Shown: positions 3,086 through 59,530 of the stretch, piece by piece
Layout of the letters: the number at the start of each line of letters is the position of its first letter
Position numbering within the stretch: the first letter of the stretch is position 1
DNA from: Octopus vulgaris
Taxonomy: Eukaryota
Direction: 5' to 3'
Assembly: GCA_951406725.2 (NCBI GenBank)
Contig: OX597833.1
Span: forward strand, 3,162,001 to 3,226,000
DNA: 64,000 bases
Notes under the pieces: generated by a model
Told to the model about the DNA's origin: nothing
What the model saw: the letters and a program-made list of their open reading frames with translations, nothing else
The model's database searches: none
Position numbers and translations under genes: made by a program

Positions 3086-3590
3086 TTGTAGTTGTGATAC
3101 CTGTGCCGGTGGCACATAAAAAGCACCATCCGAGCGTGGCCGATGCCAGCGCCGCCTTGACTGGCTTCCGTGCTGGTGGCACGTAAAAAGCACCATCCGA
3201 ATGTGGCCGATGCCAGCGCCGCCTTGACTGGCTTCTGTGTTGGTGGCACGTAAAAAGCACCATCCGAACGTGGCCGATGCCAGCGCCACCTTGACTGGCT
3301 TCTGTGCCAGTGGCACGTAAAAAGCACCCGCTACACTCACGGAGTGGTTGGCGTTAGGAAGGGCATCCAGCTGTAGAAACCTTGCCTGATCAGACTGGAG
3401 CCTGATGCAGCCTCCTGACTTCCCAGACCCCAGTCGAACTGTCCAACCCATACTAGGACAGAAAATGGATGTTAAACGATGATGAGGATGATGACTGGAG
3501 CCTGGTGTGGCTGTCTGGTTTGCCAGCCCTCAGTCAAATCATCCAACCCATGCTAGCATGGAAGGCAGACATTAAACGATGATGATGATG
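3086..3590 (+). mobile_element. Repeat family C (RTE 3' UTR-type) with an internal 67-bp tandem array and duplicated tail
   Basis: Units start at 3103, 3170, 3237 and 3304, followed by GGAGTGGTTGGCGTTAGGAAGGGCATCCAGCTGTAGAAAC and two (GAT)n-ending tails. Confidence 0.85.
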
Positions 3591-24523: not shown

Positions 24524-24556
<33 letters not shown>

Positions 24557-24714
24557 AAAGCATACTGGGAGAAAGGAAGGAAACGAAACGAAACGACGTG
24601 AGGGTGCTCAGTCATACAATAATGTAATAAATAAAATATATGCATACATACATACATATATGTACGTACCTACATCTACATGTATATATATATGCATATA
24701 TAAATATATATATG

Positions 24715-24965
24715 TGAGTACAGGACACCACAAATAGACGTGGAACTCAACGAGAAACGAAAACATAAAAACAAGGGAACGGACTTTTTTTAACAACGAA
24801 AAAACGGAACACAGGACAAACAACACAAGGAACATTCCCCTTCATCAGCTGTCCCCGGTTCGACTCCATGTGTGTTTCGAAGGTAAGGACAGGACACGCT
24901 CGTCGGACCAGTCCTTCCTGCGAGGGAATTAAACAAAATTCCCTTGCAGAGGGGTAAAAATAAGG

Positions 24966-24968
<3 letters not shown>
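24715..24968 (-). mobile_element. Short non-autonomous ribozyme-bearing element in (TA)n (possible Penelope-like pLTR or retrozyme-like unit)
   Basis: CpG-containing unique block bounded by TA-rich microsatellite. Contains a 13-bp hairpin (24918-24949), the permuted hammerhead, and a U/G-rich 3' part. Confidence 0.55.
24837..24909 (-). ncRNA. Hammerhead ribozyme-like motif, non-circularly permuted (pseudoknotted) topology, copy A
   Basis: Minus-strand RNA: GGUCCGAC-GA-GCGUGU-C-CUGUCC-UUA-CCU-UC-GAA-ACACAC-AUGGA-GUCGAACC-GG-GGACAG-CUGAUGA-AGG. It has the core CUGAUGA, GAAA and a GUC cleavage triplet. Stem I CUGUCC/GGACAG; stem III GCGUGU/ACACAC (5/6) with extension GGUCCGAC/GUCGAACC (7/8); stem II CCU/AGG. 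Confidence 0.75.
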
Positions 24969-58789: not shown

Positions 58790-59066
58790 TCTTTTAATTT
58801 TGCGATTTTCTTAAAGGGCCAAACAGAATCCAATGTGAGAGATGTCTAACCATGCAAGATAAAATGGAAGTGGAAAAAGGAAGATACAGCAAGGAAGAAA
58901 ATGCAGTGTTTGTATGTACGAGTGTATGTGTGTCTGTTTTTTCTGTGTCCCTTTTTGAAGAAGAGCATAGGCTCGAAACGTAAAAGTCTTTTTCTATTCC
59001 TGAGCGTTGTACTAATACATCTGTTTGTTTTGTACACCACCTGTCTTCGTCTTTTGTTTTTTTCAT

Positions 59067-59142: not shown

Positions 59143-59512
59143 GGTATGTAGAAAAATACAACATGGACAAGAACGTATAACTCTTAGAAGACGACACAAT
59201 AAACACGGACAGGACATTCGAAACCCTCAGTCTTCAGTCAAGAACCGGATCATCGTAGTAATTTCGGCTGATTAATCTTGAGATTACTAGATCACGGCCA
59301 GCCCTCCAAGAAAAACCAAGCAACGAGCATTAGAAAAACTAAGCTGGAAGCGTAGATTTCCTGGAAGAAGGATCGAATGCATACGAACACCAGGACAGCA
59401 AAAGGGACAGATATAAAAAAACAAAAAACAATAATGGAATACAGAAACATGAAATACAGAAGCATTAACGGTGAAAACAACAGTGTCTTACGACTGATAA
59501 CAAGCAAACAAA
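59139..59512 (-). mobile_element. Short non-autonomous ribozyme-bearing element abutting (TA)n
   Basis: CpG-containing block with the permuted hammerhead and a U-rich 3' part that runs into (TA)n at 59099-59138. Confidence 0.55.
59227..59298 (-). ncRNA. Hammerhead ribozyme-like motif, non-circularly permuted (pseudoknotted) topology, copy B
   Basis: Minus-strand RNA: GCCG-U-GAUC-UAGUAAU-C-UCAAGA-UUAA-UCAG-CC-GAA-AUUACUA-CGAU-GAUC-CGGU-UCUUGA-CUGAAGA-CUGA. It has the core CUGAAGA, GAAA and an AUC triplet. Stem I 6 bp, stem III 7 bp plus extension, stem II 4 bp. Confidence 0.78.
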
Positions 59513-59530
59513 TATACATACATACATAGT

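Follow-up and report, generated by a model that had tools for sequence, protein, structure and literature searches.

Non-circular permutations of the hammerhead ribozyme, types SGC and CSG, were described with evidence of cleavage by Eckert et al. in 2023; in the portions of that paper available to us, type-SGC hammerheads are reported only from metatranscriptomes, and type CSG is represented by two examples (PMC10085705). The term type-SGC occurs in Eckert et al. 2023 alone among the literature that we searched. Small insertions into the hammerhead core have also been listed, none of them, in the part of the list accessible to us, of the split kind described below (Perreault 2011, PMC3088659). 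Among mobile elements, non-LTR retrozymes have been proposed to move via cleaved or circular RNA by means of Penelope-like proteins (PMC7229834; bioRxiv 10.64898/2026.07.22.740005). Naiads target (TA)n and were presented by Craig et al. in 2021 as elements without canonical hammerheads, with half cores in eight of them; the same accessible text calls the cephalopod Naiads long inactive (PMC8557442).

We analyzed a window of 64,000 nt from Octopus vulgaris (contig OX597833.1, positions 3,162,001 to 3,226,000), part of a 2.8-Gb assembly that is rich in microsatellites; all coordinates below are positions in this window. On the minus strand, a motif at 24917-24842 (copy A) contains every element of the hammerhead core, arranged as S, G, C and with the short stem I-stem II linker of type SGC, a block order already published under that name. 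Read 5' to 3', a hairpin, P0 (24918..24951), abuts on its 5' side the predicted 5' strand of stem II (IIa, 24913..24917), which covariation places upstream of, and not contiguous with, the CUGAUGA core and which begins with G10.1. There follow the 5' strand of a helix that we call P4 (24902..24911), the GA of the nonbulged strand of a predicted kink-turn (24900..24901), and block S (24893..24899), which comprises the stem III 3' strand and C17 (24893) and contains the GUC triplet. The sequence and a pile-up of insertion junctions both point to a cut at 24893/24892, so that the stem I 3' strand (24887..24892), itself defined by covariation, would form the first nucleotides of the 3' product. 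A UUA linker (24884..24886) ties the distal ends of stems I and II and leads into block G, with the stem II 3' strand at 24883-24879, GAA at 24878-24876, and the stem III 5' strand at 24875-24870. The 3-nt bulge and GA of the predicted kink-turn (24865..24869) come next, and the P4 3' strand (24855..24864) enters stem I without a linker. The stem I 5' strand (24854-24849) and the CUGAUGA core (24848-24842) complete the motif, with the predicted ribozyme 3' end at A9, and a segment at 24837..24843 could compete for the stem II 3' strand.

Stem I of copy A (24892-24887/24854-24849) is paired at 6/6 positions, and stem III (24899-24894/24875-24870) has a single A-C mismatch. A preliminary description of this DNA had foretold that a family consensus would restore the stem III pairing, and the restoring G is indeed found in 30 of 36 aligned family copies. 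Its strand order, stems I and III, GUC, CUGAUGA, GAA, UUA linker, bulged extension of stem III, and predicted cleavage site are likewise borne out on the minus strand, and the hairpin that it noted at 24918-24949 is present at 24951-24918; an equivalent hairpin is paired in 33/37 copies of copy A's type and in most other types. The coordinates 24837..24909 given there take in the core parts and miss the start of the motif, since the predicted stem II partner at 24917-24913 moves it out to 24917. CUGANGA, GAAA, and the U-H step are kept in the window, with deviations of 2/253 and 1/108 in family A, and, in line with a check that had been proposed, core columns of this family vary less (3/361) than the 3' flank (80/2,076).

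The second motif, copy B (59231..59303, minus strand; core at 59237; predicted cut at 59282/59281), has the same layout with different stems and lies in an insert at about 59143-59515 that belongs to a very young family. Copies A and B are the only matches of an S-G-C descriptor in the window; among 60 local dinucleotide shuffles, two gave one match and none gave two. A full split descriptor also finds only A and B in the window and yields 0 matches in 200 shuffles. Genome-wide, a pattern with the core letters, UUA, and spacings fixed has 7,620 matches, compared with 47 for the reversed pattern. The resemblance between A and B thus exceeds chance, and the proposal of a conserved, non-circularly permuted hammerhead class common to unrelated elements is supported; the two copies do sit in unrelated elements, as first described, and are not isolated look-alikes, since both are members of large retroelement families. 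An Rfam scan of the window gave no family at the gathering score, and the circular orders CGS, GSC, and SCG had no match there by descriptor. A match in GCS order on the same core was set aside, as it requires a mismatch and does not recur in other families. Adjoining copy B, at 58950-58990 on the plus strand, another repeat carries a decayed minimal type I hammerhead-like motif of the Penelope type. Elsewhere in the window (3101-3328), we noted a 67-nt tandem repeat of a common interspersed element that is found at many other loci.

Covariation of stems I and III is seen in a set of 70 distinct motifs drawn from 110 loci, with at least eight different strand pairs for stem I. To compare registers for stem II in the commoner variants, copies were anchored on stems I and III only. 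The five bases before GAA pair at 5/5 positions with a strand lying 20-27 nt upstream of U16 in four types: 29/35 copies of the CCUUC type, 27/30 of the CAGCC type, 12/12 of the UGCUC type, and 5/5 of another; neither of the two copies of a fifth type reaches 5/5. For the UGCUC type, we derived the expected partner from the strand before GAA prior to reading the upstream sequence, and all 12 copies proved to have it. The CCU/AGG register that had been proposed for stem II holds in 32/35 CCUUC-type and 21/30 CAGCC-type copies and in 0/12 and 0/5 of the other two types, against 12/12 and 5/5 for the upstream pairing. A contiguous register with a one-base bulge is possible in 35/35, 0/30, 8/12, and 0/5 copies of the same four types, and a strictly contiguous stem II in none of their copies. 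A cross-pairing matrix of stem II strands between types is diagonal. A broader table over all loci, metagenomic families included, comprises 151 anchored copies, 139 of them in 15 types of two or more copies. In these 15 types the upstream stem II has 4/4 Watson-Crick pairs in 113/139 copies (background, 8%), and a contiguous stem II, with G-U allowed, is possible in 46/139, copies of one type not being independent. By type, the upstream partner has the majority in 9/15 and the contiguous one in 3/15; the six without an upstream majority are all small (2-5 copies).

Metagenomes served as an out-of-sample set. They gave 119 matches, of which 49 had stems I and III and 42 of these enough flank. 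An upstream partner scoring at least 8/10 was found in 30/42, at offsets of 18-22 and with six or more new stem sequences; a score of at least 9 was reached by 20/42, versus 7/68 chance matches. The best downstream pairing reached a score of 8 in 2/49 and never 9. An intact LINE family has CCCC after A9, unable to pair with the strand before GAA; among LINE-type copies, the contiguous stem is possible in 0/10 and the upstream stem in 8/10. A pattern with the upstream pentamer ahead of a variable spacer had 746 matches (control, 0); the pentamer was required by the pattern, so these matches are no test of the pairing. In one copy of family A (L014), the first base pair of the upstream stem II is A-U in place of G-C, a change on both strands. 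Taken together, these comparisons of sequences indicate that the earlier stem II assignment is probably wrong and that stem II is formed with the upstream strand; the two pyrimidines (UC) before GAA that had been regarded as extra would both belong to it. With the partner some 20 nt upstream, the entry and exit of the chain would likely both lie between A9 and G10.1, an arrangement that is probably outside the six of Eckert et al.

The linkers on the two strands beyond stem III are complementary and form P4, with a median duplex energy of -6 to -11 kcal/mol in the nine largest types. A kink-turn consists of a helix, a 3-nt bulge, tandem G-A/A-G pairs, and a second helix. In copy A, and in 84/139 copies overall, stem III and P4 are separated by its sequence pattern (3-base bulge, tandem G-A), which is absent from 4/15 types; other types have a bulge or an AGUA/GAA-type loop at this position. 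Two further repeat families (L081-L085, L093, L102, and L143-L162) carry such an AGUA/GAA-type internal loop in place of the kink-turn, which we take to be loop E-like. The chain order would be IIa, P4a, stem III/UH/stem I, UUA, IIb/GAA/stem III, P4b, and stem I/CUGANGA. In the fold that we propose, stem III would run into P4 through the kink-turn or, in some families, through a different internal loop or a bulge; the bend at the kink-turn would return P4 to the distal ends of stems I and II, already tied by UUA, and the distal ends of stems I, II, and P4 would meet in a second three-way junction with linkers of 1, 0, and 3 bases, which would stand in for the usual loop I-loop II contact. P4 would then be the equivalent of the helix that joins stems I and II in the permuted hammerheads of Eckert et al., and the topology would be the CSG/SGC/GCS ring opened inside block C, with the only free ends at A9 and G10.1. 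The predicted bend addresses a puzzle that Eckert et al. state, how the stem I-II helix is joined to stem III (PMC10085705). One unpaired base between A9 and G10.1 is common in hammerheads of Penelope-like elements (PLEs) (PMC4209133) and is also present in HRIMA-1 (PMC10085705 supplement), suggesting that the backbone is tolerant at this position.

The copy A insert (24553..24968, minus strand) is a 5'-truncated piece of an ORF-less tandem element of ~800 nt, with (TA)n on both sides; it starts at unit position +725, about 75 nt before the cut, and ends 340 nt after it. A first look gave 2,561 candidates for family A, and the 40 that were scored are 89-100% identical. The unit is 793-829 nt long with a GC content of 0.39; it is tandem in L009, L020, L022, and L030/L141 and inverted in L003/L006 and L021. 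The 3' end lies 340 nt past the predicted cut in 14 of 30 loci and 263-276 nt past it in another 13; these positions are TA-rich sites inside the unit, nearly all of the inserts run on into (TA)n, and their 5' starts are scattered. Family B has 1,301 candidates, all 40 scored copies being 100% identical, and a unit of 843-863 nt whose longest Met-start frame has 82 codons and lies in simple repeats; no credible ORF was found in the units of either family. Each of 13 young B arrays, which contain 2-4 copies of the motif, stops in (TA)n 139 nt beyond the cut, and the starts are scattered. Units differ by 0-1 substitutions within arrays (10 pairs) versus mostly 1-6 between them (200 pairs); 17/200 between-array pairs are identical, and the arrays are therefore no proof of rolling-circle copying. 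On one B unit, a 797-nt contig of source X5 spans the predicted cut and priming site, and X8 crosses the priming site; the 14 sources guessed to be RNA, none of them recorded as such, consist of contigs, which show neither ends nor strand, and as tandem DNA would give the same picture, we weigh them neither for nor against. No reverse transcriptase ORF, and no ORF of their own with an N-terminal GIY-YIG and reverse transcriptase, is joined to A or B in the loci scanned. Both families show (TA)n targets and tandem and inverted insertions, which are shared with other Penelope-like clades and are thus not diagnostic of Naiad. ORF fragments of other Penelope-like families lie in L096 (1-690) and downstream of the array in L020; they presumably represent C-terminal GIY-YIG-like parts and candidate helper clades for A and B.

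We tallied junctions by hand at distinct loci, taking inserts that begin directly next to (TA)n at a point inside a 31-nt window spanning the cut. Among the matches listed, 18/20 B loci and 21/30 A-type loci have junctions at +1 to +7 (P = 3e-10 and 4e-8, respectively, against a uniform distribution), a broad peak that overlaps A/T-rich bases favoring microhomology with (TA)n, so that some +7 cases may be chance. Exactly at +1 are 6 B and 7 A-type junctions, 13/50 together, and junction density falls about thirtyfold just 5' of the predicted cut, again among the matches listed. On the minus strand, totals were 465 in the cut window versus 146 in the window from +12 to +42, with anchors that cover slightly different subfamily sets for the two counts. 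The start of two Naiad-type inserts is likewise at +1, to within an ambiguity of two bases. Reverse transcription of the 3' cleavage product would give such a pile-up, which, as indirect evidence, points to cleavage in vivo. No start at the cut was seen among the 13 B arrays, consistent with either circles or simple truncation.

To examine how far the motif extends, we read by eye the 3' ends (about 280-350 nt each) of 51 of 54 Naiad consensus sequences. Five have the split layout (two from octopus and three from Acropora), as, judging from its sequence, does probably one from squid. Six nematode 3' ends (1-, 2-, and 3_Nbra, Hcon, Hpol, and Asuum) carry complete type-CSG hammerheads with three paired stems, and in the parts read the remaining Naiads have no such hammerhead. 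Bivalve and hemichordate Naiads have in common a conserved structured motif of another kind, not a hammerhead, and those of a spider and an ostracod have other hammerhead-like arrangements in which stem II is hard to place. The 3' motif of the published octopus Naiad, which has the split layout, gives 698 matches in the genome (control, 0) and is joined to the end of the Naiad ORF at one (L124) of 6 loci read. Metagenome motifs directly follow an ORF end, by regular-expression match, in 14/41 loci; the last 100 codons of these ORFs have no Pfam match, and we take the ends to be typical of restriction-endonuclease LINEs, clade HERO. A genome search with this ORF end returned 150 scored matches, and octopus elements with an intact ORF of 1,109-1,175 aa that includes a reverse transcriptase domain have the split motif in the 3' UTR; at least two older families, read by eye, have it there too. 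In the young LINE family with these intact ORFs (L307-L310 and L317), the stem II strand and P4 are separated by an additional hairpin. On metagenome contigs (L163-L281), several LINE-linked families end 35-45 nt after the core, placing the predicted cut about 90 nt from the element 3' end.

How firmly can an unusual fold be preferred over ordinary ones? Copy A, like its family taken alone, also fits an ordinary contiguous SGC fold. Family A could be a plain type-SGC hammerhead with one bulged base after A9 and a G-U-rich contiguous stem II, the upstream pairing being an alternative, e.g., inhibitory, fold. Such a stem (G-C, G-U, G-U, G-C) can form in 35/37 copies of its CUUC type, versus 29/37 with a perfect upstream partner, and in 8/13 of the GCUC type. 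It matches the layout of HRIMA-1 (PMC10085705), and the five bases after A9 are well conserved in family A (5/185 substitutions, versus 12/170 in the upstream strand). It is also weaker than the upstream duplex, and it cannot form in any of 30 B-type, 12 and 12 copies of the two largest, mainly metagenomic types, 10 LINE-type, or 5 Naiad-type copies, types that share every other feature and whose 5' junctions gather at the cut; moreover, the upstream pairing places C11.1 beside GAA, as a catalytic stem II does. We regard the contiguous fold as unlikely. The fold first proposed, with a 3-bp stem II after A9 and two extra pyrimidines before GAA, seems far less likely still: its stem covaries between A and B and holds in most copies of their two types, yet it fails throughout two other types, is part of a longer pairing that would remove G8 and A9 from the core, and calls for two inserted bases before G12, which the accessible descriptors of Eckert et al. 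do not include (PMC10085705). In copy A, that longer pairing with 24837..24843, including G8/A9, has an energy of -7.7 kcal/mol, versus -7.3 for the upstream strand; it would block the core, and without G8/A9 it is the rival contiguous stem II. One may speculate that it acts as a switch keeping the cut product or circle inactive.

The catalytic reading faces a different challenge, namely, that the motif derives from a hammerhead, no longer cuts, and serves as a folded signal for reverse transcriptase, the pile-up reflecting stalling and TA microhomology. The spread of the peak over +1 to +7, the uncut motif held by most inserts, and the absence of cut-site starts among the B arrays would suit this explanation, to which we give a low probability, below that of the contiguous fold and above that of the 3-bp stem. 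A stall predicts no sharp edge, yet density drops steeply 5' of the cut and about a quarter of the tallied junctions among the matches listed fall exactly at +1; in addition, many unrelated families retain U-H and every catalytic position of the core. Chance assembly in a repeat-rich genome can practically be dismissed: the constituent motifs are short, and minimum-energy folding of copy A contains no hammerhead (z = -2.2), as expected of a method without pseudoknots, but the shuffled and reversed-pattern controls and covariation across genomes refute it. We consider it likely that copy A is a 5'-truncated, ORF-less tandem retroelement insert with a scrambled hammerhead that self-cleaves after GUC and whose stem II is predicted to come from upstream.

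By analogy with retrozymes, read-through transcripts of tandem units would be cut to ~800-nt monomers, and a Penelope-like reverse transcriptase would be primed within the unit, at a TA-rich site that lies 139 nt (B) or about 270/340 nt (A) downstream of the cut; internal priming has been reported for one Penelope-like element (PMC11167929). On linear cut RNA, the enzyme would run off at or just before the cut, giving short inserts from +1 to +7, and on ligated circles or uncut multimers copying would continue, giving arrays of 2-4 units. The fold, cleavage, circles, and Penelope-like helper are all what we infer from genomic sequences. With somewhat less assurance than for copy A, we favor a wider interpretation, in which this is a seventh hammerhead wiring, with its core opened at A9/G10.1 and caged by a kink-turn. 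Together with the CSG hammerheads of nematode Naiads, it would form a common and overlooked 3' module of animal retrotransposons (Naiads, restriction-endonuclease LINEs, and ORF-less riders) that is cut in vivo and that explains why Naiads had seemed to lack ribozymes. The split-core wiring and its setting in high-copy genomic retroelements appear to be new: our search of open-licence PMC and bioRxiv papers turned up no account of the split form, nor of any scrambled hammerhead in a retroelement. If this interpretation is right, the stated rule against interrupting any of the three hammerhead blocks is broken, non-circular permutations move from rare metatranscriptome RNAs to thousands of animal chromosomal copies, and the question of why Naiads appeared to be without hammerheads is answered. 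The junction pile-up would mark the RNA 5' end copied by reverse transcriptase, making the long-open role of PLE hammerheads directly testable, and a ribozyme whose two free ends share one core position and whose kink-turn can be bound by protein would be a useful scaffold.

Set beside the systems described so far, as the accessible parts of the cited papers present them, the motif resembles the type-SGC (HRIMA-1) and CSG hammerheads in its cyclic block order, full core, stem I-II linker of ~3 nt, and extra helix; unlike in those, stem II is here predicted from upstream, both strands of P4 lead into stem III via a predicted kink-turn, and the motif occurs at thousands of copies in an animal genome (PMC10085705). 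Like non-LTR retrozymes, families A and B are ORF-less, low-GC head-to-tail repeats with one hammerhead per unit (PMC7229834; bioRxiv 10.64898/2026.07.22.740005), whereas retrozymes have a type I hammerhead in units of 170-400 nt (PMC7229834) and A and B a split, scrambled form in units of 790-860 nt. With Naiads they share (TA)n targets, partial tandems, and inverted 5' parts, and they differ from them in having no ORF (PMC8557442); since cephalopod Naiads are described as long inactive and family B is very young, the helper may belong to another Penelope-like clade. Finally, like the minimal type I hammerheads of PLEs, the motif lies near the 3' end of a Penelope-type element and has a loose position between A9 and G10.1; those ribozymes are circularly permuted, with a short stem III, and act as dimers (PMC4209133), whereas the present motif has three full stems within a single copy.
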